A stretch of DNA of 48,435 bases from an uncultured Ruminococcus sp. (GCA_964433515.1 CAYSRL010000001.1:1-48435), one strand, 5' to 3'. Positions 1,502 through 22,291 are shown, numbered from the stretch's first letter. Made by a program: numbers and translations. The notes: a model not told the origin generated them from the letters alone.

Positions 1502-1551
1502 CCCTGCATCACTCCTTACGGAATACTATGCAGGGATGCTTCAAACTATAC

Positions 1552-3378: not shown

Positions 3379-3507
3379 ACTACCCTCTCCTTTATGTTAA
3401 AATCACAAAGTTTTTTACTATCCTTTTTATTATAACACATATCCCGGCAGGTTAAAAGATGTTTTTGCACAAAATGCACATTTACCCAAAGAAAAAGCGA
3501 AAAATGC

Positions 3508-3601: not shown

Positions 3602-4966
3602 ATGCCTGTCGAAGTATGGTATCTTATAGCGATGTTCGCTGTAGTCACCATCGGATTCACCCTGCTCAAGCGACCCCTGTACGAGTGTATGCTGGCCGGC
3701 TTTATCGTGCTGGTCGTCATCACCGGAACCTGGTCCGACGTGGGCACCTTCATTTGGGAGGCGCTGAAAGAGCCTACCCTGTACGTCATTTTCGCCTTTA
3801 TCCTGTCGGCGGAACTATTGTCCAAGACCTCGGTCATTGACGATTGCATCGCCATCATCCTGTCCATCTTCGGACGGCTTCGTGGCGGTGCCGGTTTTGT
3901 GGCCGTCATCGGCAGTTCCTATATGGGCTCTCTGTCCGGCTCCGGCCCCGGTAACGTGGCCACCACCGGCGTGTTCACCATCCCGGCCATGATCCGCTCC
4001 GGCTTTCCCCGCCATCTGGCCGCCAACGTGGAGGCTCATTCCAGCACCATGGGCAATATGATCCCTCCCGCCGGTATGATCGGCGTGGCCTTTGCCCTGT
4101 TGGACAAGTTGTATCCCAACACCTATACGCTGCCCCAGTACTGGCTGTTGTTGTGGGGTATTGCTCTGTGGTTTATCGCCCAGCGCATTATCACCCTGTA
4201 TCTGATGTGCCGGTATTATAAGGTGGAGCCCATGAAAAAAGAAGAGGTGCCCAAGTTGGGCGAGTCTCTCAAGCGGGGCTGGAAGGCTGTGTTTCTCCCC
4301 ATCATCGTGTTTGTGCCTTTCCTGTTGACCAGCAAGTTTGATTATTTCTTCACCGCCCGGCTGAACGAGGCCGGTGCCAAAGCGCTCAACAACAGTCTGC
4401 TGTTGATCATCCCCGCCCTGATCGTGCTGTGCGGCATCCTGCTTTCGGATAAAAAATCCCGCAAGTTGATGACCCCCAAGTATATGTATCAGAGCATCAA
4501 CAAGGGTATGCTGAAGGTGGTTCCCACCGCCGCTCTGGTGCTGTTCGCCTATTTCGTGGCCAACGTGCTGGAGAGTCTGCACATCGAAGAGGCCATCGGC
4601 ACCTTTATCCAGGAGATGAATATGAGCCACGTGGCCCTGTGCTTCATCATCCCCTTTATCTGCGCCATCCTCGGTATGGTCCTTCCCGGTTCCAGCCAGG
4701 TTAAGATCTTCGGCGGTATCATCATCACCCTGCTGGCCGGTGCCGGCGGAAACCCCATGCTGGCGGCGGCTATGCTGCCCTGTATCTGCGGCGCTATGCA
4801 CGGCGTCACGCCCCCCTATTGCGCCTGCGTATATACCGGTATGGGTATCGCCCAGTCCGAGTTGAAGCCCACGCTGCTCAACTGTATATTCTGGATCATC
4901 CCCCACTATCTGCTGAGCGTTGTGATCCTGCTGGAATGGCTCCCCGTCTGGGGTCTGATTGGTTAA
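3602..4966 (+). CDS. TRAP-transporter large-permease (DctM)-like membrane protein
   Basis: 454 aa and polytopic. The segment GSGPGNVATTGVFTIPAMIRSGFP...AANVEAHSSTMGNMIPP resembles the DctM/TAXI-TRAP signature (..AAxVEAxASTGGQxMPP). Strong RBS. No DctP or DctQ partner is present in the window. Confidence 0.6.
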   Translation: MPVEVWYLIAMFAVVTIGFTLLKRPLYECMLAGFIVLVVITGTWSDVGTFIWEALKEPTLYVIFAFILSAELLSKTSVIDDCIAIILSIFGRLRGGAGFVAVIGSSYMGSLSGSGPGNVATTGVFTIPAMIRSGFPRHLAANVEAHSSTMGNMIPPAGMIGVAFALLDKLYPNTYTLPQYWLLLWGIALWFIAQRIITLYLMCRYYKVEPMKKEEVPKLGESLKRGWKAVFLPIIVFVPFLLTSKFDYFFTARLNEAGAKALNNSLLLIIPALIVLCGILLSDKKSRKLMTPKYMYQSINKGMLKVVPTAALVLFAYFVANVLESLHIEEAIGTFIQEMNMSHVALCFIIPFICAILGMVLPGSSQVKIFGGIIITLLAGAGGNPMLAAAMLPCICGAMHGVTPPYCACVYTGMGIAQSELKPTLLNCIFWIIPHYLLSVVILLEWLPVWGLIG

Positions 4967-4981: not shown

Positions 4982-5272
4982 ATGCGTGAAAAGATTTTTA
5001 AGATCCTCAACAATATCTACGGCGTTCTGATGACCGCCTCCTTTTTCGGAGGTGTGCTGCCGCTTATCCCCTTTATCATCGCCATGATCGTAGGCGGTGA
5101 GGCCGGAGAGGCGATCGCCCTGTTCCTCTACAACGACTATTATCCCTGGGTGATCCTGGCCGGTTCCATCGCCGTTGTGTTTGGCCTCATCGCCATGTAC
5201 GTCGGTAAGTTGGAAGGTCTGAGCGTGAAAAAGGTCAGCGTCGACAATCCCGCTGAGAAACCCGAAGAATAA
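4982..5272 (+). CDS. Small two-TM membrane protein, unknown function, co-transcribed with the permease
   Basis: 96 aa with two hydrophobic helices. Strong RBS TAAGGAGG lies 9 nt upstream. Starts 15 nt after the permease stop codon. Confidence 0.65.
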   Translation: MREKIFKILNNIYGVLMTASFFGGVLPLIPFIIAMIVGGEAGEAIALFLYNDYYPWVILAGSIAVVFGLIAMYVGKLEGLSVKKVSVDNPAEKPEE

Positions 5273-5301
5273 AACAAAGAAACCCAATACCGCAACAGAA
5301 A

Positions 5302-5340
5302 AAGAGAAGGCTCGTTTATCACGAGTCTTCTCTTTCTTTT
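5302..5340. terminator. Rho-independent terminator between convergent operons
   Basis: Hairpin AAGAGAAGgCTCG-tttatca-CGAGtCTTCTCTT followed by TCTTTT. Confidence 0.6.
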
Positions 5341-5443: not shown

Positions 5444-6895
5444 TCACTTTTGCTCGGCGATGATCCGCTTGCGGTCGATCTTGCCGTTGAAGGTGCGGGG
5501 GATCTCGTCAATGGCCTCAATGTATTTGGGCACCTTGTAGGCCTCCAATTTCTCGGCCAGATACTCCGACAGGGCGGCCGCATCCAGCCCATAGCCCTCG
5601 TTCAGTTTCACCAGCATCTTGACCACACGGCCGTATACCCGATCCTCATAGGGGATGCAGACACACTCGTCCACCATCGGGTGGCGCAGAGCCACATCCT
5701 CCACCTCGGTGGGGGCGATCTTCAGGCCGCCCACGTTGATAACGTCGTCACGGCGTCCCACCAAATACAGATAACCGTTCTCAATATACCCCAGGTCGGT
5801 CATATAGATCACGCCGTCCTGAATGGTGTTGGCGGTCAACTCCGGCTCATTCCAATAGCCGGCGGTAACGGTATTGCTGCGAATGGCGATGATGCCGGGG
5901 TTCTCCTTGGTGGCATTCTCCATCCGGTCGTAGTGCTCATCCACGATATAGATGTCCACGCCGGGATTGGCCTTGCCCACGCATTTGGTGTCGCCGGTCA
6001 CCGCATTATAGTCGATGTAACACACGGCGCCCACCTCAGAGCCGCCGTATGCATCAAATTTCCGCACATCGGGGAGCAGAGAGATCAGTTTTTCTTTATC
6101 GCCGCCGGGAAGTGCCGAAGAACTGGAATACAGGAAATCCAACTGGTCGTTGTATTTGGCCAGTTCCTTGGCGCCCAGCATCAGCACGTAATGGACGCCG
6201 GCCGGAGGCAAATAAATGGAGGTGACGTGGTGGTTTTTGATGTTGTCAAAAAACTGTCTTAGGTTGGTAAATCCAGTCATCAGCAACACCGTACTGCCCC
6301 GCACCATCGACATATGCGTCTTACGCAGGCCGGCAGCGTGATTCATCGGGGTGGGAATCAGCCACACGTTATCCTTGCTGTAATTCAGCACCGCATTCTG
6401 GGACTCGCACATATTCATCTGGCCGTAATGCGTGATCATCACGCCCTTGGATTTGCCGGTGGTGCCGGTGGTGAACAGGATCTCCTGCAACATATCTTCA
6501 GAGGGGAACTCCGGCACCGGGCCCTGATAGGCGGCCAGGTCGTCCAGGGTGACACCGAACGGCTCCAAAGGATGCTCGCCGGTGAGCAGCATACTGGGCG
6601 TAATCTCGGAGGCGATCGCAGACACCCGATCCGCCGGAGCGGCGTGCTCCACCGGAACGTGGACACCGCCCGCCAAGTGGATGCCGTAGCACATCACCAG
6701 AAACTCCACCGTGTGGTTGGCCTCCAGAATGACCCGTTCACCCTTTTGCAGCCCCTTATCCTTCAGCAACGCCGCCATACCCGCCACCATACTCCACAGG
6801 GCGGCGTAATCCACCGTGCGGTCGGGAGCGATCAGAGCGGTCTTGTCCGGCTGGGACAGGCTATGGTCATAAATACTCTTTACAATGGAACGCAT
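5444..6895 (-). CDS. AMP-dependent (adenylate-forming) ligase, DltA-like carrier-protein ligase
   Basis: 483 aa. AMP-binding core motif TTGTTGKSKGV. C-terminal NGKIDRK motif typical of ANL enzymes. AAGGAG RBS. Lies two genes from a DltC-like carrier protein. Confidence 0.85.
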   Translation of the reverse strand: MRSIVKSIYDHSLSQPDKTALIAPDRTVDYAALWSMVAGMAALLKDKGLQKGERVILEANHTVEFLVMCYGIHLAGGVHVPVEHAAPADRVSAIASEITPSMLLTGEHPLEPFGVTLDDLAAYQGPVPEFPSEDMLQEILFTTGTTGKSKGVMITHYGQMNMCESQNAVLNYSKDNVWLIPTPMNHAAGLRKTHMSMVRGSTVLLMTGFTNLRQFFDNIKNHHVTSIYLPPAGVHYVLMLGAKELAKYNDQLDFLYSSSSALPGGDKEKLISLLPDVRKFDAYGGSEVGAVCYIDYNAVTGDTKCVGKANPGVDIYIVDEHYDRMENATKENPGIIAIRSNTVTAGYWNEPELTANTIQDGVIYMTDLGYIENGYLYLVGRRDDVINVGGLKIAPTEVEDVALRHPMVDECVCIPYEDRVYGRVVKMLVKLNEGYGLDAAALSEYLAEKLEAYKVPKYIEAIDEIPRTFNGKIDRKRIIAEQK

Positions 6896-6932
6896 ACAGA
6901 CACTCCTTAGTTTTCAGCAGTTATCAGCGTGA

Positions 6933-7496
6933 TCACTTATCCCGGCGCTTATGAAAGCGCTCCCACACCAAAGCGGCGGTCTCGGGATCCATCTCCTGGT
7001 TTTTCACCTTGACGCACTGGCCACGGCTCATCTTCCGCAACGCCAGGAACATATCAAAGCGGCCGGTCACCTTGGCAGGGATGCCGGAGGCCACCGAATT
7101 CTCGGGAATGTCGGAGGTGACCACACTGCCGGCGGTCACGATGGAATCCTTGCCGATGCGGACATCCGGCATCACGGTCACGTTCATAGCGATATACACA
7201 TTGTCCTGCAGATCCACGCAACCCAACTTCTCGCCGTGGCCGAAATCGTCTTCGGGATTACGGATCTTGAGATAGCGGTTGAGCATATCGTGGGTAACGA
7301 TCTTTGCCGTCTTGTGTACGTGGACGTTGTCGCCCAGGCAGATCAGCTCCGGGTATAACGGCACCAGCCAAGGACCCCATTTGCAGTTATCGCCGATGGC
7401 GCCCAGAATGTGGTTCTTTTTCAGATAAGCGGCACGCTTTGCCGGTTTGCGGCACAGCAGCAACCGGATACTGTGATACATTCGTTTTGCTCTCAT
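6933..7496 (-). CDS. Left-handed beta-helix (hexapeptide-repeat) acyl/acetyltransferase
   Basis: 187 aa. Hexapeptide repeats include LGDNVHV, LQDNVYIAMNVTVMPDVRIGKDSIVTAGSVVTSDIPENSVASGIPAKV. Overall similar to maltose/capsule O-acetyltransferases. Confidence 0.8.
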   Translation of the reverse strand: MRAKRMYHSIRLLLCRKPAKRAAYLKKNHILGAIGDNCKWGPWLVPLYPELICLGDNVHVHKTAKIVTHDMLNRYLKIRNPEDDFGHGEKLGCVDLQDNVYIAMNVTVMPDVRIGKDSIVTAGSVVTSDIPENSVASGIPAKVTGRFDMFLALRKMSRGQCVKVKNQEMDPETAALVWERFHKRRDK

Positions 7497-7508
7497 ACTG
7501 CCACCTTA

Positions 7509-7739
7509 TCAGCCTTTCAGCCGCTCTACCATCGCCGTGATAGCCGCAACAGAATTGAAGTTTTCGGGGGCGATCTCATCCACACCGATCTCCACGTCAA
7601 AGCCCTCGGACAGCATCGAGATCAGGCTCATCAGTTCGAAAGAATCCAAATAGCCGCCTTCAATAATGTCCTCAACGCCGGACAGGTCACGGGTGGGCTT
7701 TACCTCGTTCAGAATGGCCAGTACTTTTTCCTGAGTCAT
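7509..7739 (-). CDS. Acyl/peptidyl carrier protein, DltC-like
   Basis: 76 aa. The phosphopantetheine attachment context GGYLDSFELMSL matches the D-alanyl carrier protein motif (ILDSFGTVELL). Confidence 0.8.
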   Translation of the reverse strand: MTQEKVLAILNEVKPTRDLSGVEDIIEGGYLDSFELMSLISMLSEGFDVEIGVDEIAPENFNSVAAITAMVERLKG

Positions 7740-7742
7740 AAC

Positions 7743-9233
7743 TTATTCCTCCGTTTTTTCTTTTGTTGTAGATGTTTGCTTTTTCTTAAACTTTTTGCGA
7801 ACCAATTTCATAATCAGCGCCCGATAGCGGTAGGCCACGATCAGCACCGCCACGCCCAAGGCGCCGATAACGCCCAGACGCACCCACAGGTGGTCATACA
7901 AATAATAACTGATGGCCATCACGCCGCAAAGCACCGCCAGAATGGCCACAAAGCCTTTGAAATTCAGGTATTTGCCAAGGCCGCTGCGGCACACCAGTAT
8001 GTAGTTGATGAAGAACAGCACCGCAAAAGCCGCAATGTTGATATACGGCAGGATCAGCACGCCGTTTCCGGGGTTTAGCGCATCGTACCAAGGGAGCAGG
8101 AAATACTTGGCCACCACGCACAACACCGCCACAATGCCCGTCCAGACGGCGGTGCTCGCCACCTTTTTCTGGTACGTGAGCATAATGGTGAAGATGGTGG
8201 TGGAGGACTGGATCAGCACCGCCACCACAAAGCCGGGCATCAACACCGTGGACTCCGGATACTTGCCGCTGCCCAGAATGTGCACCACCTCGGGAGCCAG
8301 CAGGATCACGCCCGCCGCCAACACCGAGATGCCCGCCATATAGGCCAGTGTGCCACGCCGGACCGCCTTGACATTCTCCTGATTCAGGTTGTCCATCAGC
8401 CAGGTGGTCACCGCTCCGGACACCGCCGTCAGCAACGTGGTCATAATGTGGTTGGCTGAGGCGGCGGTGGACACCACCGCATTGGCCTCTTCACCCAACC
8501 GCATCGTGGTGATGATGGAGTTGGAGGAACTCAGCAACTGGGCGGTCAGATAATGCAGCATCAAGGGGAAAGACAAGGCCAAGCCGTATTTGCAATATTT
8601 CCAGCCAAAGCCCTTTCCCCGGGCGATCAGCGCCAAAGCGCACCCCAAGCCGATCAAAGCGGAGGGAATATAGAAGCCGTAAATGCGGGCGCCCAACTTT
8701 TGCGTTTCGGGGGCCAGAATCACCAGCACCACCGCAATCACCGTGGGGATCAAGGCGTTAAGCGCCGAGATCACCGCCACCCCTTTGTACCGATAAAAGG
8801 TGCGCTCACGGGCCATAAAGATCTGCTTGCATCCCTGGAACAACAGCATAATAAACAAAACGTGGATATACTGCTTCGGGATGGAGGTGAAAGCGGAGAA
8901 CCAATCCCCGCAAAGCAACGCCACACCGTACAAGACCAGTGTCACGCCGCAACTTGCCAAGGTGACCGAGGATACGTATTTGTTGAAATCCTCTTTAAAA
9001 TCGTAATAGGCACGGGCCACCGTATTCTGCATCTCCAGACTGGTGATGATCAGCAACAGGGTCTCCCAACTGGCAAAGTTGGAGAAGGCGCCCAGATCTT
9101 CTTTGGACAATAACCCGGCAAAAATCGGGTGGGTGATAAAGGACAGACTCTTTACCAAAAACGTGCTGAGCACATACCAAAAGCCCGCTTTGATCGCCAG
9201 ACCGGCGCTGCCCCTTTTTACATTCTCTTGCAT
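7743..9233 (-). CDS. MOP-family polysaccharide flippase (Wzx-like)
   Basis: 496 aa with about 12-14 TM segments. Sits in a glycan locus directly downstream of the polymerase-like gene. Basic C-terminal tail. Confidence 0.75.
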   Translation of the reverse strand: MQENVKRGSAGLAIKAGFWYVLSTFLVKSLSFITHPIFAGLLSKEDLGAFSNFASWETLLLIITSLEMQNTVARAYYDFKEDFNKYVSSVTLASCGVTLVLYGVALLCGDWFSAFTSIPKQYIHVLFIMLLFQGCKQIFMARERTFYRYKGVAVISALNALIPTVIAVVLVILAPETQKLGARIYGFYIPSALIGLGCALALIARGKGFGWKYCKYGLALSFPLMLHYLTAQLLSSSNSIITTMRLGEEANAVVSTAASANHIMTTLLTAVSGAVTTWLMDNLNQENVKAVRRGTLAYMAGISVLAAGVILLAPEVVHILGSGKYPESTVLMPGFVVAVLIQSSTTIFTIMLTYQKKVASTAVWTGIVAVLCVVAKYFLLPWYDALNPGNGVLILPYINIAAFAVLFFINYILVCRSGLGKYLNFKGFVAILAVLCGVMAISYYLYDHLWVRLGVIGALGVAVLIVAYRYRALIMKLVRKKFKKKQTSTTKEKTEE

Positions 9234-9247
9234 AGGATGGCTTCTCC

Positions 9248-10519
9248 TTAATCTGAAACTAAATCTTTCGCCAGTATCTTGCGGTCGCCCAACAGTATCA
9301 ACATATAATACAGCATACCAATGGTGGAATGTGTGTGAGCGCTAAAGATTGAGGTGATCAGAACCACCGCCGCAACCAGTTTATACGGTAATTCGCCTTT
9401 GAACAAACCAACTATATACAATTCTACCGACAAAAGCATACCAATAAGGCCGTGGCGAAGAAGAGCACCGATCAAGCCGGGAACGTTGTAGGAAATGTTG
9501 TGGGTGGTGTCCTGAACACCAAATATCCATTGCGTAACGGTCAAATCCTTAAGGCTCTCAAGCGCCTTGGAAATTCGACCGGTGATCGCTGTTGTGCCCG
9601 TCTTAGTAACAAAAATCCGTGTTACGGTACGATTCACAGAAGGAATAAACAAAAACGCCAACACTGCCGCAACCAGCATAATACCAATCAACAGGAGATT
9701 GCGCCGGCAGAATACATTTCGCAAAGCAAAGGTGCCGCTCTTCTCATCGTATAATGCAAAAAACAAAACCCAGGCACCCACCACAACGGCCATTCCCATT
9801 CCGGAGGTGCAAAGGATCATCCCGAGGCTGATCAGAATGGACACCGTTAACCGTTTCTTCGTGGCTTTACCGCCAAACAAGGATAAAAGCAAATGAGGAA
9901 AAGCATAAATATACAGGTGGGAGGGCTCCAAAAAGAAAGCTGAGGGACGATAAAAATCGCTCAATCGTCCGGTGATGCCCGCCAAACCGGTTTGCGCTCC
10001 TAAAATCCACTGGTCCGCCATCGGCAGCAAAAGCGACGTAGGAACCAGTTGGATGTGATGCTCAAAGAGATAGAAACTGATGTACTGCACTATCAGACAA
10101 AGGGAAGCCGCAATGCTAACCATCGTTGCGGCCTTACACATCTTATCGATCTTGATACACCCTAGCGCTGCGGTCAGCAGATACAATGCCAAAACCCCGC
10201 TTTGGCCAAACTCCTCTACAGAAGTTCCGTGATCAACGACCCGATAGACAAAATAGCCTACCATAATCAAGACCGGGCTGATTCTTTTCAATATTGTTTT
10301 AATGTCCGTTCCTTTTACAGAAAAGTAAGCCCGCACAAGCAAATACGGCACCAGTACCACCAACAAAGTCAAAGCAGCATTGTACAATACGCTTCTGTAG
10401 TGTTGCAGAATAGGCACCAGTGCCAAAATGATGGCGCAAACATAATCCAACATTTCAGTTGTATCCTGTCTTGACCAATCGCTTGTTGCGTTGATACATT
10501 TACTCCGTAATGTTCCCAT
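9248..10519 (-). CDS. Polytopic membrane protein, Wzy/O-antigen-polymerase-like
   Basis: 423 aa with more than 10 TM helices. Visibly AT-richer than its neighbours, as is typical of wzy genes. GAGGAG RBS lies 7 nt upstream of the ATG at 10519. No catalytic motif was recognised. Confidence 0.5.
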   Translation of the reverse strand: MGTLRSKCINATSDWSRQDTTEMLDYVCAIILALVPILQHYRSVLYNAALTLLVVLVPYLLVRAYFSVKGTDIKTILKRISPVLIMVGYFVYRVVDHGTSVEEFGQSGVLALYLLTAALGCIKIDKMCKAATMVSIAASLCLIVQYISFYLFEHHIQLVPTSLLLPMADQWILGAQTGLAGITGRLSDFYRPSAFFLEPSHLYIYAFPHLLLSLFGGKATKKRLTVSILISLGMILCTSGMGMAVVVGAWVLFFALYDEKSGTFALRNVFCRRNLLLIGIMLVAAVLAFLFIPSVNRTVTRIFVTKTGTTAITGRISKALESLKDLTVTQWIFGVQDTTHNISYNVPGLIGALLRHGLIGMLLSVELYIVGLFKGELPYKLVAAVVLITSIFSAHTHSTIGMLYYMLILLGDRKILAKDLVSD

Positions 10520-10580
10520 TTTATACTCCTCATCTCAGAACGCTGTCAGAATAGTATGCTTTCCGGCGGAAACAACTCAA

Positions 10581-11627
10581 TTATGCCCGATAACGAGGGA
10601 AAAAGCCGCCCTCAGGCAAAGACTCACGCATAGAAACCAGTTCGTCGTATTTTTCTTGGTTAAATACTTTTTTTCCTATGTAAAAGCGGTGCAAAGCCTC
10701 ACCACGGTAAAAGGCTCGTTTGAACTTAAAAAGGCTGTCCTCACCGCTACCAACACCGCCGCCGAGGTACAGACTCTTGCACCCATTGGCGCAACCCCAC
10801 AGGGCTGCCTCATACAACAGCAGATTGCTGGGCGCCAAATGAGCGTATTCCCGCAACGAGCCGGAAAGGTGATAGTTCATTTTGCCGTTGCAGGCCAGCA
10901 TAATGGAAGCGGCAATGATCTTATCCTCCCACACAGCATAAAACACCTGGGCATTCTGAGGCAAATCATTCAGCACGCTCTCGTAAAACTCCGGAGAGAA
11001 ATAGTAATAAGCAGAGGCGTTATCCTTATCCATCGTGCCGTTGTAGATCTCTCGGAAGATCTTGTAAATCTCAGGATATCGGCCATTGTAGATGACAATG
11101 CCATTTTTCTGGGCCTTGCGGATCATATTGCGGTTTTTGCTGATGATATTGGCCCAAATCGTCTCAGGAGAGGTCAGGTCCATAGTCACCGTTTCGCCCA
11201 GAGGAATCACCTCATAATGATCGGTAACTTGCCGATGATTCTCCAGAACCGGGTGAAAACGAACAAACTCGCTGACGATACCGTTTTTACGGCACCAAGA
11301 CTCGTAAGCGGCCATCAGGCCGGATACATCCTCTCCCTCGATCAGCCAACCGCCATAGCCGTAAGGGCAAGCCAGATCAAAGACCCGGTTCTCCTCCAGA
11401 CGGCCCTGAAACAGGGCGCTGTGAGCCACATCCCGCTTCATAGACACCGAAATGCCACGGGTCTCCCCTTTTTCATAATGAAAAAGAAGCGGCTCGCCAT
11501 CGCCGTGAAGTTGAAAAGCCTTCACATAACCGCTCAGGTAATAGGTGTCGTATTCTTGGAATGTACGAACCACAGCATCCCACTGTTCCGCTTGTTCTAA
11601 CGTATATACGGTCAACAATACACTCAA
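10581..11627 (-). CDS. FemAB-family (Acetyltransf_6, GNAT-fold) aminoacyl/peptidyl transferase-like protein
   Basis: 348 aa. The C-terminal segment HLSGS...LLLYEAALWGCANGCKSLYLGGGVG..DSLFKFKRAF resembles the FemX/FemAB signature (..FK.GFGG). Confidence 0.65.
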   Translation of the reverse strand: MSVLLTVYTLEQAEQWDAVVRTFQEYDTYYLSGYVKAFQLHGDGEPLLFHYEKGETRGISVSMKRDVAHSALFQGRLEENRVFDLACPYGYGGWLIEGEDVSGLMAAYESWCRKNGIVSEFVRFHPVLENHRQVTDHYEVIPLGETVTMDLTSPETIWANIISKNRNMIRKAQKNGIVIYNGRYPEIYKIFREIYNGTMDKDNASAYYYFSPEFYESVLNDLPQNAQVFYAVWEDKIIAASIMLACNGKMNYHLSGSLREYAHLAPSNLLLYEAALWGCANGCKSLYLGGGVGSGEDSLFKFKRAFYRGEALHRFYIGKKVFNQEKYDELVSMRESLPEGGFFPRYRA

Positions 11628-12652
11628 CCTCTCCAGAACATTTTTAGTATCTGCGCCAACCGCTCCATATCCTCGGGGGAATACCGCTGGTCGCAGACCA
11701 AACTCAATTCAGACTGATAAATACGCTTCGTCTTTTCGTCCGGGCGGTGATAGTCGGTCAGCGGCCAATGCACCGGACAGTATATCTCATTCTGTATCAA
11801 GTGACGACGCAGAGCATCCCGTCGGTCCGCCGGCACCATCACCGGCACAAACAAAGGGCAATCCGCCGCCTGCATTTCCGGGAACAACGCCACCTCTGAA
11901 AAATGACGAAGTAACACCGCCGCATTCTCACGACGGCGGCGGCGCATCTCAGTTACATCCAGCACGACCGCTCTCGCCACATCCTCCGATTCGGCAACGG
12001 CCATAGGATTGCTCTCCAGTATCTCCTCAGCCTCGCCAAACAGGGACAGATATTCTTTGCTGTCGGTTTTTCCGGCGATATACTCCGCCTTTTGCTCCAT
12101 TGCCGTGCGGCGCAAAGATACATACTCTTTATAGGTGTCCTCCGGCTGTCCGGAGAAGCCCCAACCATAACCGCCGGTGTAGAACCCGGCCCATTTCCGC
12201 AAACTGCCAAAAGAATAGGCGTCCTCCCCGCTATGGGGGGCAAACAGGCCATGTGTCAGGTCGTGAATACACACCCCGTCAAAGGATGCCGTATTGGCAC
12301 CCGCCTCATAGCCGAAATAGTCCATCCGAAACAATATATCGCAACTCTCTGTACCGGAAAGTTCCTGTTTGAAGCGGCCGTTTTCGGTATACACCGGATA
12401 AAAGCACACCTCAATACCCGCCTCGGCAAAGGGGGAAATCATACTGTCGCAACACCAGGCAGGCATCGCCACCCGGCGCACCGGACGCTGTGCCTGTATC
12501 TCGGCGATAATGTGGGTCAGGGCGCTACGCCCAGAAAGAAACCAACGGGTTTCTGCCGGGAACACGCCGTTTTCGGCAGAGGCGATGGGAACATTCCAGA
12601 ACTCACTGCCGATTTCTAAGCGGTGACGCACAACCGCATTATCTTGCATCAT
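11624..12652 (-). CDS. PLP-dependent-transferase-fold protein (DegT/DnrJ/EryC1-like), function unclear
   Basis: About 342 aa. SGRSALTHIIAEI...MPAWCCDSMISPFAEAGIEVCFYPV resembles the DegT N-terminal region. A possible Schiff-base Lys is in SLRKWAG. The track ORF starts at a TTG at 12676. I prefer the ATG at 12652, preceded by GGGGAG. The ATGA overlaps the next gene. Confidence 0.45.
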   Translation of the reverse strand: MMQDNAVVRHRLEIGSEFWNVPIASAENGVFPAETRWFLSGRSALTHIIAEIQAQRPVRRVAMPAWCCDSMISPFAEAGIEVCFYPVYTENGRFKQELSGTESCDILFRMDYFGYEAGANTASFDGVCIHDLTHGLFAPHSGEDAYSFGSLRKWAGFYTGGYGWGFSGQPEDTYKEYVSLRRTAMEQKAEYIAGKTDSKEYLSLFGEAEEILESNPMAVAESEDVARAVVLDVTEMRRRRRENAAVLLRHFSEVALFPEMQAADCPLFVPVMVPADRRDALRRHLIQNEIYCPVHWPLTDYHRPDEKTKRIYQSELSLVCDQRYSPEDMERLAQILKMFWRG

Positions 12653-12685
12653 ATTCTCCCCTGCCTTGTCTGGCAAATACCGTCC

Positions 12686-13984
12686 TTACGAGTTGTGGAT
12701 CATCTCCAGGGCACGATCGTAGGTCAACTGCTCCACCTGCATATCCTGGCCGTTCTCGTCCAGGATCCGCAGAGTGCGGCTGATCTTCTCCAGGGTGGTG
12801 GCCAACGCCTCCGGGGTGTCGTCCATCACGTGCAGACGATAAATCACACGATCCAGAGAGTTGGTGGTGCTGATAACATCCCCCACCTTTTTAAAGGTGG
12901 CATTCTGCAACACTTGAGGCATCGCCTCCACCTCTTCGATGCCGGAGATGGCGGTGATGGTGCCACCCTTAAGCGTGATATAGTAATTGCAGCAGGTCTT
13001 GGTGAAATGAGGGTCGTCCTGCTCCTTAGCATTGCCGCAGGTCATCTTTCCGGTGACCGAGAACTCGATCATCATATCCAGGGCGTTGATGCCGTTGATG
13101 GGATCGGCAAATACATAAAACTGCTCGCCGCCCATACGCAGACCAGACTCGTAGAAATAGAACTGATCCTCGTGAATGAAGCCCTGCATCATCACGATGC
13201 CGTTCTTCAGACCCAAACTCTCAAACATACGAACCACAGCCGGTTCGGCAGTAGCCTTGTAAAGGTCGATGTAAGAGGAGGGGAATACGTGCAAAATGGC
13301 GGAAGAAGCCACCTTGTTCTCGCCGATGGCCTTCTGTTTCATAAAGGTGGAGGACAGGCTGCAATAGCCATCCTGCACCGTGTAATGGATGTAGATCTCG
13401 TTGGGACAGTCAATGTACTTCTCCACCAAAATCTTCTTGCTCTTGGAATGCTCGTACAGCTCGGCATAATAGGAGACCAACTCCTCCTCGCTGTCGCACC
13501 GGCGGATTCCACGGCTGCCACTCTCGTCAGCCGGCTTCACCAACACGGGGTAGGTGATCTTATCCAGATCTTCCCGCTTGAAATCCGTATCCAACTTATA
13601 CTCAGGGATGGTGGGAACACCATACTGCACACAGGCCTGCTTAAAGCGGCGCTTATCGTTGGAGAGGATGTCAAACTGCTCCATCGTGCCGCAAGAAGGC
13701 AGACCGGCCTTTTCGCAAATCTCAGCATAGTAAGGCAAGTGAGAATCGGTCCAGCCCACAAAAATACCGTCAATCTGGTGCTCCTTGATCAGGGCTACCA
13801 TATTGTCCACATCGGAAAAGTCCACCTTCCACTGTTGGTCGGCAATCCGCTTGGCCGGAGCCTTATCCTCTTCGTAGAAGTTGGCGACAATGGTGGTGAC
13901 GCCCAACTCTTTGGCTCGCTTTACCGCACTGGCCGCCAAAGAAGAGCCATCAAAAAACAGCAATTTTTTCCCTTGAATGTTCAT
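12686..13984 (-). CDS. ATP-grasp ligase
   Basis: 432 aa. A pre-ATP-grasp Rossmann-like N-terminus (KKLLFFDGSSLAASAVKRAKELGV) is followed by a central ATP-grasp segment (YPVLVKPADESGSRGI..., LVEKYI). Confidence 0.8.
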   Translation of the reverse strand: MNIQGKKLLFFDGSSLAASAVKRAKELGVTTIVANFYEEDKAPAKRIADQQWKVDFSDVDNMVALIKEHQIDGIFVGWTDSHLPYYAEICEKAGLPSCGTMEQFDILSNDKRRFKQACVQYGVPTIPEYKLDTDFKREDLDKITYPVLVKPADESGSRGIRRCDSEEELVSYYAELYEHSKSKKILVEKYIDCPNEIYIHYTVQDGYCSLSSTFMKQKAIGENKVASSAILHVFPSSYIDLYKATAEPAVVRMFESLGLKNGIVMMQGFIHEDQFYFYESGLRMGGEQFYVFADPINGINALDMMIEFSVTGKMTCGNAKEQDDPHFTKTCCNYYITLKGGTITAISGIEEVEAMPQVLQNATFKKVGDVISTTNSLDRVIYRLHVMDDTPEALATTLEKISRTLRILDENGQDMQVEQLTYDRALEMIHNS

Positions 13985-14011
13985 AGTTTTTTCCTCTCTT
14001 ATCGTTTTTCT

Positions 14012-14734
14012 TTACTTTGCCGAAAAAGGGGAGGATAGCGACTTGGTGTCGTCCCCCTCAGTCTTAGGAAGGCGATCTGCCCGCTCAATATGCAGGCTAA
14101 CCGGGCGTTGCTCACCTTGGCCGATGCCGTCCCGCTTGACCACCTTGATAACGGTTTCAAACAGGATGCGGATATCCAGCCAAAAGGACATATTGTTGAC
14201 GTACTCTACGTCATAGGCAAACTTCTGCTCCCAACTCAGGTTGTTCCGTCCACGAGCCTGAGCCAAACCAGTCAGACCCGGCAACACATCGTGACGGTGC
14301 CGTTCCTCCTCGGTGTAATAAGGGATGTACTTCATACCCAGAGGTCGGGGACCCACCAGACTCATATCTCCCTTGAGAATGTTAAACAACTCCGGCAACT
14401 CATCCAGCGAAGAGGCTCGCAACAACTTGCCAAACTTGGTCAAGCGGCGGCTGTCCGGCAACAGATTGCCGTTTTCGTCCTTTTCGTTGGTCATAGAACG
14501 GAATTTGTACAATTTGAAGATTCTTTCCTTTCCGGTCTTGGGATCGATCTTGCCAGGCCGGGTGGCAGTATAGATCACCGGGCTTCCCAGTTTGAGGCGT
14601 ACCAACAATGCCACAACGGCAAACACTATCGCCAAAACGATCAAACCGGACAAAGAACAGACAATATCCAACAGCCGCTTAACATAGCGGGCATACAAAC
14701 CATTCTTACCCTTTTTCATACGCAACTTCCTCAC
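14012..14734 (-). CDS. Monotopic initiating phosphoglycosyltransferase (bacterial sugar transferase, PglC/EpsL/WbaP-C type)
   Basis: 240 aa. Re-entrant helix, then KFRSM...DELPQL-like motif (SSLDELPELFNILKGDMSLVGPRP) diagnostic of the Bac_transf family. Confidence 0.9.
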   Translation of the reverse strand: MRKLRMKKGKNGLYARYVKRLLDIVCSLSGLIVLAIVFAVVALLVRLKLGSPVIYTATRPGKIDPKTGKERIFKLYKFRSMTNEKDENGNLLPDSRRLTKFGKLLRASSLDELPELFNILKGDMSLVGPRPLGMKYIPYYTEEERHRHDVLPGLTGLAQARGRNNLSWEQKFAYDVEYVNNMSFWLDIRILFETVIKVVKRDGIGQGEQRPVSLHIERADRLPKTEGDDTKSLSSPFSAK

Positions 14735-15945
14735 TCAAAACACGCCCGGATGGCGGCGATCACCACGTCCTGATCCTCGGGGGACATCTTAATGTCGCTG
14801 GGCAGGCACAAGCCACGATGGAAAATGTCGGCGCTCACATTGTCGATGGCGTCCTTTTTTTGGCTCTTATACAGTCCCTCTGCGGTGACGAACGCATTGC
14901 CCTTGTAAATGGGCTGCATATGCATCGGCTTCCAGATGGGACGGCCCTCGGCGTTGATGGCCGCCAGTTTCTCCAGGATCTCGGTGGGACAACTCTTGCC
15001 CGGTTCATCGGAATAAGCCGCCACACACGCCTTTCGTCTTTGGAAGCACATCGCCTCTTGGTCAATCAGCATACAGGTCAGCCAGAAGTTGGGCTCCATC
15101 TCCCCCTCCACGTAGGGGTTGAGGGTGATGGGCAGACCCTTCAGGCCCTCTTTGTACCGTTCGTAGATGGCCTTTTTCCGGGCCACGTGATCCTCCAGAT
15201 AAGGCAACTGACCCCGAACCACGCCGGCGATCACATTGCTCATACGGTAGTTATATCCCCGCTCCTCATGCTGATACCAAGGAGCATCCTCACGGCTCTG
15301 GGTGGACCACTTGCGCACCTTGGCGGCCGCCTCGGCGCTGTCGGTCAGCAACATACCGCCGGAGGAACCGGTGATGATCTTGTTGCCGTTAAAAGAGATC
15401 ACGTTATAGTCACCCACCGAGCCGGTCTGGCGCCCCTTATAGGTGGCGCCCAAACTCTCGGCGGCGTCCTCGATCAGCACCGCACCGTGAGCATCGCAGA
15501 TGGCACGGATCTCGTCCAGTTTGGCAGGGGTGCCGTACAGATGCACCGCCACCACCGTCTTGACCTCCGGGTACAGTTCAAAGGCCTTTTCCAGCGCCGC
15601 CGGGTCCATATTCCAGGTCTCCCGCTCGCAGTCGATGAACACCGGCTCGCCGCCCTCGTAGGCCACCGGGTTGACGGTGGCGGCAAAGGTCATATCGGTG
15701 CAGAACACCTTATCGCCGGGGCGGACACCCGCCAACTTGACCGCCATATGGAGAGCCGCCGTGCCGGCAGACAGCCCCACGGCATAGCGACAGCCCACCT
15801 TTTCGCAGACCAGGCGCTCTGACTCGTTGATGTTCTCGCCGATGGTGGACATCCAGTTGGAGTCATACGCCTCTTGGATATACTTCATCTCATCCCCGTG
15901 CATCGTGGGGGTGGATAACCATACTCTGCTCTTAAATGCTTCCAT
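14731..15945 (-). CDS. DegT/DnrJ/EryC1/StrS-family sugar aminotransferase (PglE/EpsN-like)
   Basis: 404 aa. Contains HGDEMKYIQEAYDSNW, SAGTAALHMA, and the active-site lysine context SFNGNKIIT. The ATGA overlaps the sugar transferase gene. Confidence 0.9.
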   Translation of the reverse strand: MEAFKSRVWLSTPTMHGDEMKYIQEAYDSNWMSTIGENINESERLVCEKVGCRYAVGLSAGTAALHMAVKLAGVRPGDKVFCTDMTFAATVNPVAYEGGEPVFIDCERETWNMDPAALEKAFELYPEVKTVVAVHLYGTPAKLDEIRAICDAHGAVLIEDAAESLGATYKGRQTGSVGDYNVISFNGNKIITGSSGGMLLTDSAEAAAKVRKWSTQSREDAPWYQHEERGYNYRMSNVIAGVVRGQLPYLEDHVARKKAIYERYKEGLKGLPITLNPYVEGEMEPNFWLTCMLIDQEAMCFQRRKACVAAYSDEPGKSCPTEILEKLAAINAEGRPIWKPMHMQPIYKGNAFVTAEGLYKSQKKDAIDNVSADIFHRGLCLPSDIKMSPEDQDVVIAAIRACFE

Positions 15946-16144
15946 AGAATCATCTTCTTTCCGGATAGACTGTCTTTGAAATATGCCGATTCAGCATATA
16001 ATTACATATATACACAGACTAATGTTACCACATTACCGCATAATTTGCAAGTATAATTTCTTATTATAGTATATAGTTGATGCAGTTGCCTATTTTTTAT
16101 GCATCGAGCCCCGAAGTTTTAGGCAAAAGCAACGGAGAAACAGC

Positions 16145-16184
16145 AAAAAAACACCCGACATTTCCAAAATGTGTCGGGTGTTTT
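16145..16184. terminator. Bidirectional rho-independent terminator ending the PrpD-like operon
   Basis: AAAAAA-ACACCCGACAtttccaaaatgTGTCGGGTGT-TTTT. The A and T runs on either side serve both strands. Confidence 0.75.
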
Positions 16185-16187
16185 CTC

Positions 16188-17543
16188 TTATTCTAAGATA
16201 GCCGAAAAGGGCTGCTGTACATCCAGGTCACGGATGCGGCCGATAAGCGCCGCCACCCGCCGGTCGTCCGCCATACCGGCGGCACACTGACGGAGTTTGA
16301 TCTCCATATCCCTCCAGGAAAGGCGCTGTTCCCCCTCGCCCTTGGGGGTGAGCACCGTCTCGGTATAGGTTCTGCCGCCGGCGGTGATGGTCACCACCGC
16401 ACCACGGATCCCCTTTGCCCGGTTTTCCAGTTCCGGGTCGGGGATCACCCGAATCTTCGGCACCAGAAACGCCGTCTTTTCACAGGTGCTCACATCCAGC
16501 TGGGACAGCCCGAATTCTCCCTTTTCCAGCGCCGCCGCCAGGCAATAATGCAACGAAAACTTCGCCTCGTCCACCGTGGTGGGATACGGGGTGTGACCGG
16601 TGGATCTGATGGCGCTGGGATACACGGTGACCGCAATATCCTCTACCCCATCCAGATCCACGCCATCCGCCTCCATCCGGTGACGGATGGCGATGGCCGC
16701 ATCGATGCCGCAATGGGTGTGACGGCAAGAAGGATACAGTTTTAAATAACTCTCGTTGATGGTGAAGGTCTCCCCCAGCCCATCAAACAACACCGCCTCG
16801 TCCACCTCGTCAGAAAAGGCGTTAAACCAGCCTTTTTTGCTCTCTAAGGGGTTGCGGGAACTCTCCACGCCCATCGCCGCCAACTGGGCGGATTCCAGGC
16901 CGATGCGGGCACCGTTGGCGGGGTTTATGGGCTTACAACCCTGGCCGCTCTCGTCAATAATGATCAAGCCGGAGGCCTGTATGGCCGCCAGGGAAATGGC
17001 GTTGTAAATGCCATCGGCATCCAGACCCAACAGTTTGGCGCAGGCCGCCGCACAGGCGATCCCGCCGCCCACGCCGGTGGAGTGAAACCCCTTGTTGTAC
17101 AAACTGGGTTGGGCGGCGCCCGCCACCCGGTTAAACACGTCGTAGCCCACCACGATGGCGGTAAACACCTCACGCCAGGTCACCGGCAACGTTTCTGCCA
17201 AAGCGAACACCGCCGGCATCACGTGGGTGCCGATGTGCCCGGCGGATCTGCGGTTGCCGTCGTCCATATCCGCACCGTGGGCATAAAGGGCGTTGAGAAA
17301 CGCCGCATTGGTCTCGGGGAATTTTTGGCCGGAGAACAGCACCGTTGCCCGGGGGGTGCCCCCCATATCCGCCATTCTGGCAAACACCTTTTCATTCAGC
17401 GCCGTATTGATGCGGTAGCCGGCAAAACAAGCGGCGTAATAATCCGCCATAAACAATTTGATCTGTTCCACCGTAGCCGGGTCCAGATCCTCAAACCGCA
17501 ACCCGGCCGCAAACCGGCTGAGGCGGGTGGTTATATCCTGCAT
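16188..17543 (-). CDS. MmgE/PrpD-family protein, paralog 2
   Basis: 451 aa from MQDITTRLSRFAAGLRFEDL, the typical PrpD-family N-terminus. AAGGAG lies 7 nt upstream. The 45 extra codons in the track ORF overlap the upstream gene and are Arg/Cys-rich. Confidence 0.85.
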   Translation of the reverse strand: MQDITTRLSRFAAGLRFEDLDPATVEQIKLFMADYYAACFAGYRINTALNEKVFARMADMGGTPRATVLFSGQKFPETNAAFLNALYAHGADMDDGNRRSAGHIGTHVMPAVFALAETLPVTWREVFTAIVVGYDVFNRVAGAAQPSLYNKGFHSTGVGGGIACAAACAKLLGLDADGIYNAISLAAIQASGLIIIDESGQGCKPINPANGARIGLESAQLAAMGVESSRNPLESKKGWFNAFSDEVDEAVLFDGLGETFTINESYLKLYPSCRHTHCGIDAAIAIRHRMEADGVDLDGVEDIAVTVYPSAIRSTGHTPYPTTVDEAKFSLHYCLAAALEKGEFGLSQLDVSTCEKTAFLVPKIRVIPDPELENRAKGIRGAVVTITAGGRTYTETVLTPKGEGEQRLSWRDMEIKLRQCAAGMADDRRVAALIGRIRDLDVQQPFSAILE

Positions 17544-17559
17544 AGCGATCTCCTTGTTG

Positions 17560-18906: not shown

Positions 18907-19036
18907 AAGGAACCTCACCTTTCATAATCATTTATCTATATTTTAAAATCATACCACAGCGATCTCCCCTTGGCAAGTGTTTTTTGCTAGGTTACAGCAC
19001 TATGATCGGCGCTTTTCCGGCTACACATATTACCAG

Positions 19037-19065
19037 TTGCAATTGCCGGAAAAATGTGCTATAAT
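19037..19065 (+). promoter_or_regulatory. Sigma-A promoter candidate for the small ORF at 19123
   Basis: TTGCAA (19037-19042), 17-nt spacer, TATAAT (19060-19065). Confidence 0.55.
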
Positions 19066-19122
19066 GCCTATGCAAACAGGAAATCTGTTTTGAAAAACTG
19101 ACGAGAAAGGAGTAGGCGATCT

Positions 19123-19359
19123 ATGAAAAAAATCATCTGCAAGGTCGAGTACGATACCGAGACCGCTCAGCTCATCGGCAAGGTCACCAGCGGTGAGTTC
19201 GGCGACCCCGCCGGCTATGAAGAGAGCCTGTATCTGACCGAGGACGGCAAGTATTTCATCTATGTCAACGGCGGCGCCGAGTCCATCTATCCCAAAGAGG
19301 ATATCAAGCGCCTGGCCAAGACCAAGGTCGACGAGTGGAAGGCCGAAAAAGGCATCTGA
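19123..19359 (+). CDS. Small cytoplasmic hypothetical protein
   Basis: 78 aa. AAAGGAG RBS, its own promoter and its own terminator. No family was recognised. Confidence 0.65.
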   Translation: MKKIICKVEYDTETAQLIGKVTSGEFGDPAGYEESLYLTEDGKYFIYVNGGAESIYPKEDIKRLAKTKVDEWKAEKGI

Positions 19360-19374
19360 TAAGCCTAAAGAAAA

Positions 19375-19407
19375 CAGCGCACCGACGGTTCGGTGCGCTG
19401 TTTTTTT
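19375..19407. terminator. Rho-independent terminator shared by convergent genes
   Basis: CAGCGCACCGAcggtTCGGTGCGCTG followed by TTTTTTT, with AAAA upstream. Confidence 0.8.
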
Positions 19408-19438
19408 ATTCTTTCTGGCGGATCGGCCGGTCCGGCGA

Positions 19439-22205: not shown

Positions 22206-22291
22206 GCCGTTGTAAGACGGGATGTGTACACGTCGGGAACTGGTTCGCTTAGCAATCTCAGGTGGTTTCAGAAGAGCGTGCCCAGCACCCT

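Follow-up and report, generated by a model that had tools for sequence, protein, structure and literature searches.

A glycan locus without a recognisable glycosyltransferase from an uncultured Ruminococcus sp., and the single-sugar polymer that it may make

Can a surface polysaccharide be built from no sugar other than the one that the initiating transferase places on its lipid carrier? This question is raised by a locus in the DNA of an uncultured Ruminococcus sp. (GCA_964433515.1 CAYSRL010000001.1:1-48435), where ten minus-strand open reading frames (ORFs), all co-directional and tightly packed, occupy positions 5444–15945 of the 48,435 nt that were analysed, which are called the window throughout. 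The original prediction had described these ten co-directional genes as a glycan locus with an initiating transferase, a flippase and a polymerase and with no recognisable glycosyltransferase (GT), and the ORF calls bear out the gene set. When the locus is compared with a Wzx/Wzy pathway, a phosphoglycosyl transferase (PGT) and a Wzx flippase of the MOP family are found, a GT that would complete the repeat is not, and no chain-length regulator appeared among the window ORFs scanned. In our judgement, the chances are evenly balanced that the locus, which belongs to a gut bacterium of the Oscillospirales, directs a surface glycopolymer made by the Wzx/Wzy route without a GT, the repeat of which would be a single, heavily N-acylated amino sugar.

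Pfam scans detected no GT in the ten genes or among the other window ORFs scanned, which were the larger ORFs of the rest of the 48-kb window (not every flank ORF was scanned). Within the same scope, no 4,6-dehydratase (Polysacc_synt_2), no Wzz/CpsCD chain-length regulator and no LCP protein were found, as had been predicted for the dehydratase and the regulator. Pfam and NCBIfam confirmed the family labels assigned earlier to eight of the ten proteins, and AlphaFold2 with Foldseek settled the other two, P4 and P6, which have no match in Pfam, NCBIfam or PDB sequences and were suspected of being hidden GTs. Neither fold is that of a GT.

P4 (11624–12649, 341 aa; 11624–12652 in the original prediction) was modelled from a 44-sequence alignment with a pLDDT of 91, and the 50 PDB matches that Foldseek listed were all sugar aminotransferases of the DegT type or close to it (TM about 0.6, E about 1e-10), including WlaRG, PseC, WecE and ArnB. 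The possibility that P4 is a hidden GT was rejected, since the model matches DegT aminotransferases only. The motifs D130xTH133 and GSLRK152W are invariant in the 44 homologues; by motif comparison, we take D130 to be the Asp that binds the pyridine nitrogen of pyridoxal phosphate (PLP) and K152 to be the Schiff-base Lys. The sequence relationship to the DegT family is marginal: P4 does not score above threshold with the PF01041 profile, and the P4-family profile reaches an E value of about 0.03 with WlaRG in a search of PDB sequences. A DegT fold combined with so marginal a relationship points to a separate, very divergent family of PLP enzymes, for which 1822 homologues were detected, nearly all of them without names.

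P6 (9248–10519, 423 aa) is a polytopic membrane protein. Its AlphaFold2 model (pLDDT 89.5) has a sole significant fold match in the PDB, the O-antigen ligase WaaL (7tpg_B, E 1.7e-4, TM 0.50), with FtsW next and transporters at TM values of about 0.1, so that a GT-A or GT-B enzyme and a transporter were both rejected. A profile of the P6 family retrieved 1456 representative clusters among 1.84 billion proteins, and Pfam Wzy_C was recognised in 11 of 42 remote family members; in the plasmids searched, P6 had no match. The family has a conserved loop, YRPSAFFLEPS; the WaaL-like fold and the invariant residues R191, R301, R315 and H397 fit WaaL/PglL and Wzy alike. The Wzy_C family mixes polymerases, ligases and O-oligosaccharyltransferases, the activities of which cannot be read from sequence. 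The WaaL fold match and the occurrence of Wzy_C in remote relatives place P6 on a divergent branch of the Wzy/WaaL/PglL superfamily and make it a candidate polymerase or ligase; the earlier label "Wzy-like" stands. Two domain combinations were seen in the family: in P0238 (L092, 10001–11866; related loci are referred to by L numbers), a P6-family domain (residues 20–409) is fused to a C-terminal hexapeptide acyltransferase domain (459–585), and one of the 42 remote members scanned carries a LicD domain.

Is the lack of GTs peculiar to this window? The same ten-gene set is present in the nearest genome, a metagenome-assembled genome of Acutalibacteraceae (L007, JAZNSL01), and in L087 and L088, with identities for P4 of 73% (L007) and 65% (L087/L088) and for the other proteins of 30–92%. 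In L087 the chromosomal surroundings of the set match those in the window, and variants of it are found in L053, L074, L091 and L094. Additional P6-family loci were collected by protein look-ups and a metagenome scan; 136 loci were annotated with iterated local profiles seeded from Pfam-checked genes, and the leftover ORFs were run through Pfam. When the count is limited to non-redundant P6 loci that are flanked by 3 kb or more on each side, 20 of 24 have no GT, so that the gene-neighbourhood comparison proposed earlier revealed a conserved GT-less set. A PGT is present in 23 of the 24, an ATP-grasp enzyme in 22, Wzx in 20, a hexapeptide transferase in 16, a PrpD-family gene in 15, P4 together with the Fem-like gene in nine, an AMP-forming ligase in eight and CpsD in four. 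The GT-less design is thus conserved as well as unexpected. Several GT-less P6 loci contain a gene for a PIG-L-type de-N-acetylase or a polysaccharide-deacetylase-like protein, which could free a C2 amine for acylation, and one locus has two PGA_cap (CapA-like) genes and an alanine-dehydrogenase-like gene; the places for these observations jointly are L119, L129 and L130 (ORFs of about 219 aa), L102 (14072–15448) and L127 (17056–18198 and 19645–20787).

A recurrent minimal form (L102, L107, L109, L111 and L115) consists of CapD, the aminotransferase, the PGT, P6, Wzx and the ATP-grasp enzyme, followed by a PrpD set: PrpD, an aldo-keto reductase, a 380-aa thiamine-pyrophosphate (TPP) enzyme, a 300-aa protein, a C-C lyase and a two-subunit fumarase-like enzyme. 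Ahead of the minimal form, L102 has CpsB, Wzz/CpsC, CpsD, an LCP protein and a NusG-like gene, so that nothing is missing here from the head of a Gram-positive Wzy-dependent capsule locus; no GT is present, and the sole candidate for the polymerase is P6. Chain-length regulators adjoin the P6 loci L091, L093, L102, L107 and L111, and a dehydratase lies directly upstream of the aminotransferase in L053, L074, L092–L094 and L102. In L040, a Pfam Wzy_C protein and one GT2 take the place of P6. The capsule head of L102, with P6 as sole candidate, and the Wzy_C replacement in L040 make it more likely that P6 polymerises single-sugar units.

The most serious competitor, which we nevertheless regard as rather unlikely, is that the cytoplasmic chemistry is unchanged but P6 acts as a ligase or O-oligosaccharyltransferase and transfers a flipped undecaprenyl-pyrophosphate (Und-PP)-monosaccharide once onto proteins (S-layer, pilin or others), as is done in Neisseria by PglO/PglL, for which a monosaccharide can serve as substrate. 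The fold that P6 matches best, and the only one that it matches significantly, is after all that of a ligase, the Wzy_C family that was reached through its remote relatives includes ligases and O-oligosaccharyltransferases, and no chain-length regulator was found among the window ORFs scanned. Moreover, the Neisseria pgl core (PglB2, PglC, PglD, PglF and PglO) follows the same gene logic and makes Und-PP-monosaccharides (PMC11130364). However, related P6 loci lie directly behind CpsB/CpsC/CpsD and LCP genes, that is, functions of polymer length and wall attachment, the protein that replaces P6 in L040 is a Wzy_C protein, and no gene for an acceptor protein is conserved nearby.

A part of the locus is far more widespread than P6. 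A scan with the P4 alignment of one genome per species yielded 278 loci, 80 of which were read, so that a P4 cassette occurs in about 280 species. The hosts are Lachnospiraceae, Oscillospiraceae, Acutalibacteraceae, Erysipelotrichaceae and others, with Oribacterium sp. P6A1, Absicoccus porci and a Lawsonibacter strain (LCP25S3_E2) among the cultured ones; like Priestia megaterium CDC 2008724142, these three have the cassette but no P6-type locus. According to tblastn, the conserved core consists of the aminotransferase, the PGT, P4 and the Fem-like gene; the latter two occur together in 77 of 86 loci, mostly adjacent. What lies between the PGT and P4 is variable: the slot may be empty or filled by a GNAT acetyltransferase, an epimerase or an ATP-grasp enzyme, the last drawn from several clades. 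Most genomes have the cassette at the start of an ordinary multi-GT capsule locus; in L089, for example, four genes for GT4 enzymes come after it, together with those for a Wzy_C protein and a pyruvyl transferase. It is also carried by a 59-kb plasmid of a cultured Bacillales strain, Priestia megaterium (L136, NZ_CP069610.1, record 10793–20762), in the order Wzz, CpsD, CpsB, dehydratase, aminotransferase, PGT, GNAT, P4, Fem-like gene and GT4, where RefSeq names P4 a "hypothetical protein" and the Fem-like protein a "GNAT family N-acetyltransferase". Since the cassette commonly heads ordinary capsule loci, it appears to be a widespread, unannotated module for the decoration of the first sugar and not a peculiarity of the window. 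The ATP-grasp clade with the LAL_C2 domain, to which the enzyme of the window belongs, always lies beside P4 and the Fem-like gene (11 of 11 loci), and another clade was found only in P6 loci without P4 (20 of 20 loci, 13 of them with PrpD). This distribution suggests that the window combines a P6 "engine" with a peptide-building cassette of P4, Fem-like and ATP-grasp enzymes and with a trio of genes centred on a carrier protein.

The cassette also provides an argument for a second alternative, namely that the locus is incomplete and contributes a decorated first sugar, a flippase and a polymerase to a multi-sugar repeat built by GTs encoded elsewhere in the genome. The cassette of aminotransferase, PGT, P4 and Fem-like gene usually precedes several GTs (as in L089 and on the Priestia plasmid), and at least one step surely needs unlinked genes, because the dehydratase of the first step is missing from the window ORFs scanned. 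We nevertheless consider this explanation improbable: the GT-less set is intact in relatives with 30–50% protein identity and in varied contexts, including 20 of the 24 loci, relatives that do have the dehydratase and CpsBCD/LCP genes still lack a GT, and Wzy is normally encoded together with the GTs of its unit. Least probable of all is a modification system for an existing cell-wall glycopolymer, the alternative already raised in the original prediction, in which P6 would append a decorated, Und-PP-borne sugar as a branch to peptidoglycan, teichoic acid or another polysaccharide. The P6 loci L092 and L121 do have genes of the teichoic-acid type beside them (Glyphos_transf, IspD, LicD and cytidylyltransferases), and one P6-family protein is fused to LicD, but no GT2/GtrB-type gene is present, and the known systems for extracytoplasmic sugar branching rely on Und-P-sugars from GT2 enzymes together with GT-C transferases rather than on Und-PP-sugars from a PGT.

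How, then, could a single sugar be made and decorated? The first two genes of the locus match a module of the bacillosamine/AATGal type, in which a DegT-family aminotransferase (PF01041) and a small PGT (PF02397) are adjacent. The nucleotide-sugar aminotransferase (14731–15945, 404 aa, DegT/PglE/LegC type, PF01041 E 2e-85) has its best NCBIfam matches with the LegC family (322 bits) and PseC, both under the equivalog cut-offs. The small monotopic PGT of the PglC type (14012–14719, 235 aa, start ATG 14719, PF02397 E 1e-59) has the Asp-Glu pair in LDELPE, the GPRP motif and a single N-terminal hydrophobic helix. Like the first-sugar modules of Campylobacter jejuni (PglFEDC), Bacillus subtilis (EpsC/N/M/L) and Bacteroides fragilis (WcfR/WcfS), the locus has a DegT enzyme beside a PglC-type PGT and a hexapeptide acyltransferase. 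Unlike in the bacillosamine/AATGal modules, ATP-grasp, P4 and Fem-like enzymes replace or supplement the acetyltransferase step, the dehydratase is unlinked, and the hexapeptide enzyme is accompanied by a carrier and an acyl-AMP ligase.

The next enzyme is an ATP-grasp carboxylate-amine ligase with an L-amino-acid-ligase C-terminal domain (12686–13984, 432 aa; Pfam CPSase_L_D2, Dala_Dala_lig_C, ATP-grasp_4 and LAL_C2), which among PDB sequences matches biotin-carboxylase/PurD-like enzymes and the L-amino acid ligase 3vot. P4 is followed by a FemX-like double-GNAT transferase (10581–11618, 345 aa; Pfam FemAB and Acetyltransf_6), which aligns with residues 148–335 of Weissella viridescens FemX, its second GNAT domain (E 3e-6), so that Lys300 is placed opposite the catalytic Lys305 of FemX. 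This Lys300 is conserved in at least 95% of 75 homologues that are 31–91% identical; thus, both the double GNAT architecture and the catalytic Lys of the FemABX family are found, and the enzyme is presumed to depend on aminoacyl-tRNA. A precedent for such chemistry on a sugar exists, since in the BD-12 streptothricin pathway the Fem-like enzyme Orf11 uses Gly-tRNA to attach glycine to an amino sugar (PMC12945691). FemX and Orf11 share with the protein of the window the double-GNAT build of about 340 aa and the catalytic Lys, and the acceptor of FemX is UDP-linked; however, the similarity amounts to about 30 bits in the C-terminal GNAT domain only, and the acceptor here would be a polysaccharide precursor. 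Membership in the PEP-CTERM/XrtA-associated families was rejected for the Fem-like protein (FemAB TIGR03019, 43 bits against a cut-off of 260) and for the acyl-CoA ligase (TIGR03098, 208 against 592 bits).

At the distal end of the locus, three genes for a second type of acylation follow the Wzx-type (MOP) flippase (7743–9233, 496 aa; PF01943 Polysacc_synt, E 5e-11, with about 12 hydrophobic segments). They encode a stand-alone carrier protein (7509–7739, 76 aa, PF00550) with the phosphopantetheine serine motif LDSFE, a left-handed beta-helix hexapeptide acyltransferase (6933–7496, 187 aa, PF00132) and an acyl-AMP-forming ligase (5444–6895, 483 aa, PF00501 and PF13193). The best NCBIfam match of the carrier is DltC, at 35 bits and under the cut-off; the hexapeptide protein matches galactoside and maltose O-acetyltransferases, QdtC and PerB among PDB sequences and resembles sugar O- and N-acetyltransferases. 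The ligase is of the acyl-CoA-ligase rather than the amino-acid type, and in its substrate motif it does not fit the earlier label "DltA-like". Where the FDxS motif of non-ribosomal peptide synthetases (NRPS) and DltA sits, it reads PTPMNHAAG, with Ala or His in place of Asp235, the residue that binds the alpha-amine, and domain by domain it resembles fatty-acyl-, oxalyl- and malonyl-CoA ligases at least as closely as NRPS A domains. A high PDB score with gramicidin synthase was rejected as a sign of amino-acid activation, because it is the sum of two A-domain matches and the amine-binding Asp is absent. Like DltABCD, the locus has a stand-alone AMP-forming ligase and a small carrier closest to DltC, but in place of DltB (MBOAT) and DltD, neither of which occurs among the window ORFs scanned, there is a cytoplasmic hexapeptide transferase. 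D-alanylation of the Dlt type was therefore rejected, and the lack of the Asp, of DltB and of DltD makes it more likely that ligase and carrier deliver a non-amino acyl group. In the related loci the gene order is always carrier-hexapeptide-ligase, which likewise suggests that the three act together to deliver a non-amino acyl group bound to the carrier. Such a device is described in Vibrio cholerae O1, where the carrier RfbK and the ligase RfbL/WbeL N-acylate perosamine with tetronate in a polymer of one-sugar repeats (PMC3441752, PMC12208996). The two systems are alike, by description, in having a dedicated carrier and an AMP-forming ligase in a polysaccharide locus; unlike the polymer proposed here, this O antigen depends on GTs for its synthesis and is carried out by an ABC transporter instead of taking the Wzx/Wzy route.

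The source of the acid may lie next to the operon. Two tandem genes of the MmgE/PrpD family (16188–18918, minus strand, identified by Pfam), which belong to a separate transcript, are closest among solved structures to B. subtilis IRG1, cis-aconitate decarboxylases and IDS epimerase, and not to 2-methylcitrate dehydratase. Of the 24 P6-type loci, 15 have a PrpD-family gene no more than 10 kb away, versus 1 of about 75 cassette-only loci. Loci with PrpD also include L053, L074, L091, L092, L094, L096, L100, L102–L104, L107, L109, L111, L115, L119, L121, L123 and L133. In P6-type loci, PrpD is often followed by genes for an aldo-keto reductase, a TPP enzyme, a 300-aa protein without a Pfam match, a C-C lyase and a fumarase-like enzyme. 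These genes look like an organic-acid pathway, the product of which may end up on the sugar. As a conserved neighbour, the pair of IRG1/PrpD-like genes would extend the functional neighbourhood beyond position 15945 to 16188–18918; the boundary drawn earlier is right for the transcription unit and too narrow in this functional sense.

The pathway that would follow has seven steps. Gene families, folds, conserved catalytic residues, the operon structure, the lack of GTs and the conservation of the GT-less set are observed; we infer all substrates, the reaction of P4, which acid is used, the order of the third to fifth steps and the polymerisation itself. A 4,6-dehydratase of the CapD/PglF type, encoded elsewhere in this genome and adjacent in relatives, would produce UDP-4-keto-6-deoxy-HexNAc, which the DegT aminotransferase would convert to a 4-amino sugar (UDP-4-amino-4,6-dideoxy-HexNAc). 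The ATP-grasp enzyme of the L-amino-acid-ligase type, P4 and the FemX-like enzyme would then place an aminoacyl or short peptidyl side chain on an amine, with P4 creating or remodelling an amine that the Fem-like enzyme acylates from aminoacyl-tRNA. Fourth, the acyl-AMP ligase would load a non-amino carboxylic acid, possibly supplied by the neighbouring IRG1/PrpD-like enzymes, onto the carrier, from which the hexapeptide acyltransferase would transfer it. The PglC-type PGT would move the sugar-1-phosphate to undecaprenyl phosphate, Wzx would flip the lipid-linked unit, and P6, as a new branch of the Wzy_C/WaaL superfamily, would join the single-sugar units (or ligate them). If the sugar were a 2,4-diamino-2,4,6-trideoxyhexose, O-3 alone would be free for the linkage.

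Other roles for P4 have to be considered. It might transaminate a 2-oxoacyl group put on by the ATP-grasp enzyme, a possibility on which it weighs that the PGT–P4 slot of many cassettes holds a GNAT, an epimerase or nothing. It could also be a sugar aminotransferase itself, since the cassettes of L089 and L090 lack a separate aminotransferase in the 10 kb read.

This last point is one of several that weigh against the proposed pathway. The only significant solved-structure match of its polymerase candidate is a ligase, at a TM of only 0.50. GTs are present in four of the 24 P6 loci; the GT-bearing exceptions are L033, L093 (which has its own Wzy_C), L129/L130 and the distant L135, together with the short contig L117, which lies outside the 24. 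Neither a 4,6-dehydratase, nor a chain-length regulator, nor an LCP ligase is among the window ORFs scanned, and the window is all that was seen of this genome. To our knowledge, no polymer with a one-sugar unit has been described as the product of a Wzy-dependent pathway. A further point concerns the co-variation of genes. Relative to L007, DNA homology of 75–85% is broken over two genes only, those of the ATP-grasp enzyme (12617–14075) and P6 (9214–10569), which have 30% and 35% protein identity, respectively, beside neighbours of about 90%. The differences look like a cassette exchange as in serotype switching, and the joint break is the pattern expected if the polymerase tracks the chemistry of the side chain. 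In L087, however, P6 is the most diverged gene, with only 50% identity, though the ATP-grasp enzyme is 91% identical, and therefore the co-variation argument is weak.

In sum, the prediction of a single decorated amino sugar that is flipped and polymerised is favoured by the conservation of the GT-less set and by relatives with CpsB/C/D and LCP genes, and has to be abandoned with respect to Dlt-like delivery. A more specific and more tentative form of the proposal, to which we give rather less than even credence, is that the locus represents an undescribed, widespread class of Gram-positive polymers without a GT, in which a PGT-made Und-PP-diamino-trideoxyhexose is polymerised by the P6 branch and each residue bears both an organic acid from an IRG1/PrpD-type pathway and an amino acid, or a short peptide, derived from tRNA. 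Such a polymer would effectively be a glyco-peptide homopolymer on gut Clostridia, possibly zwitterionic. As had been supposed, the pathway does not seem to be described: the literature searched, with incomplete coverage, contained nothing on a one-sugar Wzy polymer, on a Fem-like enzyme in a capsule locus or on the P4 and P6 families.

If the proposal is true, Wzx/Wzy can run on a one-sugar unit supplied by the initiating transferase alone, and structural diversity would come entirely from N-acyl and peptidyl decoration and not at all from glycosidic linkages, which would change the interpretation of capsule loci and the prediction of repeat-unit size from gene content. The tRNA-dependent aminoacylation of a polysaccharide precursor would take Fem chemistry beyond peptidoglycan and antibiotics. 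Three large uncharacterised families would be given roles, namely the DegT-fold P4 (more than 1800 homologues, about 280 species), its Fem-like partner and the P6 branch (about 1450 representative clusters). The carriers are abundant gut and rumen Clostridia, and amino-sugar polymers with amines and carboxylates resemble the zwitterionic polysaccharides known as modulators of host immunity.

The locus as a whole can be compared with three known systems. With Gram-positive Wzx/Wzy capsule loci, such as cps of Streptococcus pneumoniae, it shares a PGT that acts on undecaprenyl phosphate, a MOP-type Wzx and an enzyme of the Wzy_C superfamily, and its relatives share CpsB/CpsC/CpsD, LCP and CapD at the head of the locus; unlike cps, the locus has no GT, its polymerase candidate has no Pfam model, and the window has no regulators. 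The second is the UDP-yelosamine pathway of Bacillus cereus, reportedly the subject of Hwang et al. 2014. In this pathway of a dehydratase, an aminotransferase and an ATP-grasp enzyme (Pdeg, Pat and Pyl), as it is cited in PMC11257628, the ATP-grasp enzyme Pyl ligates 2-oxoglutarate to UDP-4-amino-FucNAc. By that description, not by sequence, the two are alike in having an aminotransferase, an ATP-grasp enzyme and a small PGT nearby, and the cited account reports no Fem-like enzyme, P4, P6 or carrier trio. Third, in the O-linked protein glycosylation system pgl of Neisseria an ATP-grasp enzyme N-acylates a 4-amino sugar (GATDH), and the lipid-linked glycan can be a single sugar (PMC11130364). 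Aminotransferase, ATP-grasp enzyme, PGT, flippase and a transferase of the WaaL/Wzy_C family are common to both; pgl also has the dehydratase. In contrast to the locus described here, pgl has its ATP-grasp enzyme and PGT fused in one protein, and its product is usually extended by the GTs PglA/PglE/PglH and ends up on proteins. The Fem-like enzyme, the second PLP enzyme and the carrier-protein acylation trio are extra here, as are the capsule regulators of the relatives.

With respect to expression, the ten genes are separated by gaps of 3–61 nt, the largest being 1 nt above the maximum of 60 nt given in the original prediction. The "ATGA overlaps" reported there at 14731–14734 and 11624–11627 read GTGA and TTGA. 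Gene callers place the starts on identical metagenome contigs at ATG 14719 for the PGT and at TTG 11618 for the Fem-like gene; with these downstream starts, there are probably no gene overlaps, and the starts at the two sites are probably not the real ones. An exact look-up of the Fem-like ORF taken from TTG 11627 gave no match because that start is wrong. Upstream, the AT-rich leader 15946–16144, which had been proposed as the promoter region, contains a promoter-like site, TAGGCA-18-TATAAT (16063–16092, minus strand; 10/12 matches in a consensus scan), the function of which is putative, being based on the consensus match. It is preceded by an intrinsic terminator of the PrpD-like gene (16144–16187, minus strand), with a 16-bp stem, a loop of 11 nt in the predicted fold and a U7 tail (−21.6 kcal/mol, z = −5.8), which the consensus terminator scan missed, apparently owing to its 8-nt loop limit. 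This terminator and the promoter-like site indicate that the ten genes form their own transcription unit, predicted to be a single operon; co-transcription of the PrpD genes with the operon was ruled out in the window by the strong terminator. At the other end, the predicted convergent terminator was found as a palindromic hairpin at 5301–5335, with a 15-bp stem, a 5-nt loop, an A run before it and a T run after it. It is a bidirectional intrinsic terminator, common to the operon and to the convergent DctM gene pair, between which it lies.

This pair (3602–4966 and 4982–5272, plus strand) encodes a DctM-family permease (PF06808) and a 96-aa membrane protein with about three hydrophobic helices; DctP and DctQ were not recognised among the window ORFs scanned. 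Related glycan loci also have this pair, either within them or at their side (L008, L024, L048, L059, L072, L074, L082, L089, L094, L104, L119, L123 and L133), and it looks inserted in the window relative to L087. Beyond it lies a glutamine-dependent asparagine synthase of the AsnB type (1552–3378, minus strand, 608 aa), the counterpart of which in L087 (17362–19188) directly follows the ten genes and is co-directional with them; in the window, the DctM pair alone separates it from them. AsnB could amidate a carboxylate of the glycan or could simply be a housekeeping enzyme. An antisense ORF of 635 aa (1528–3435) was rejected as an artefact.

The other ORFs scanned on this flank encode a DUF4830 protein and a pseudouridine synthase, in addition to the DctM permease and the asparagine synthase. 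On the opposite flank, the two MmgE/PrpD-family proteins are accompanied by a xanthine/uracil-type permease, a ZnuABC-type transporter, a GMP-synthase-like and an F420-ligase-like protein, a class A penicillin-binding protein, homoserine dehydrogenase, aspartokinase, Rnf subunits, ApbE, the seryl-tRNA synthetase SerRS and DnaJ. Neither tRNA genes nor Rfam elements were found in the window. Between the permease on the PrpD side and the ZnuABC-type transporter, a stretch of low GC content (20934–22774, minus strand; GC 0.42 over 21001–22000 versus about 0.55 around it) contains ORFs of 322 aa and 160 aa without a Pfam match and may have been acquired horizontally.

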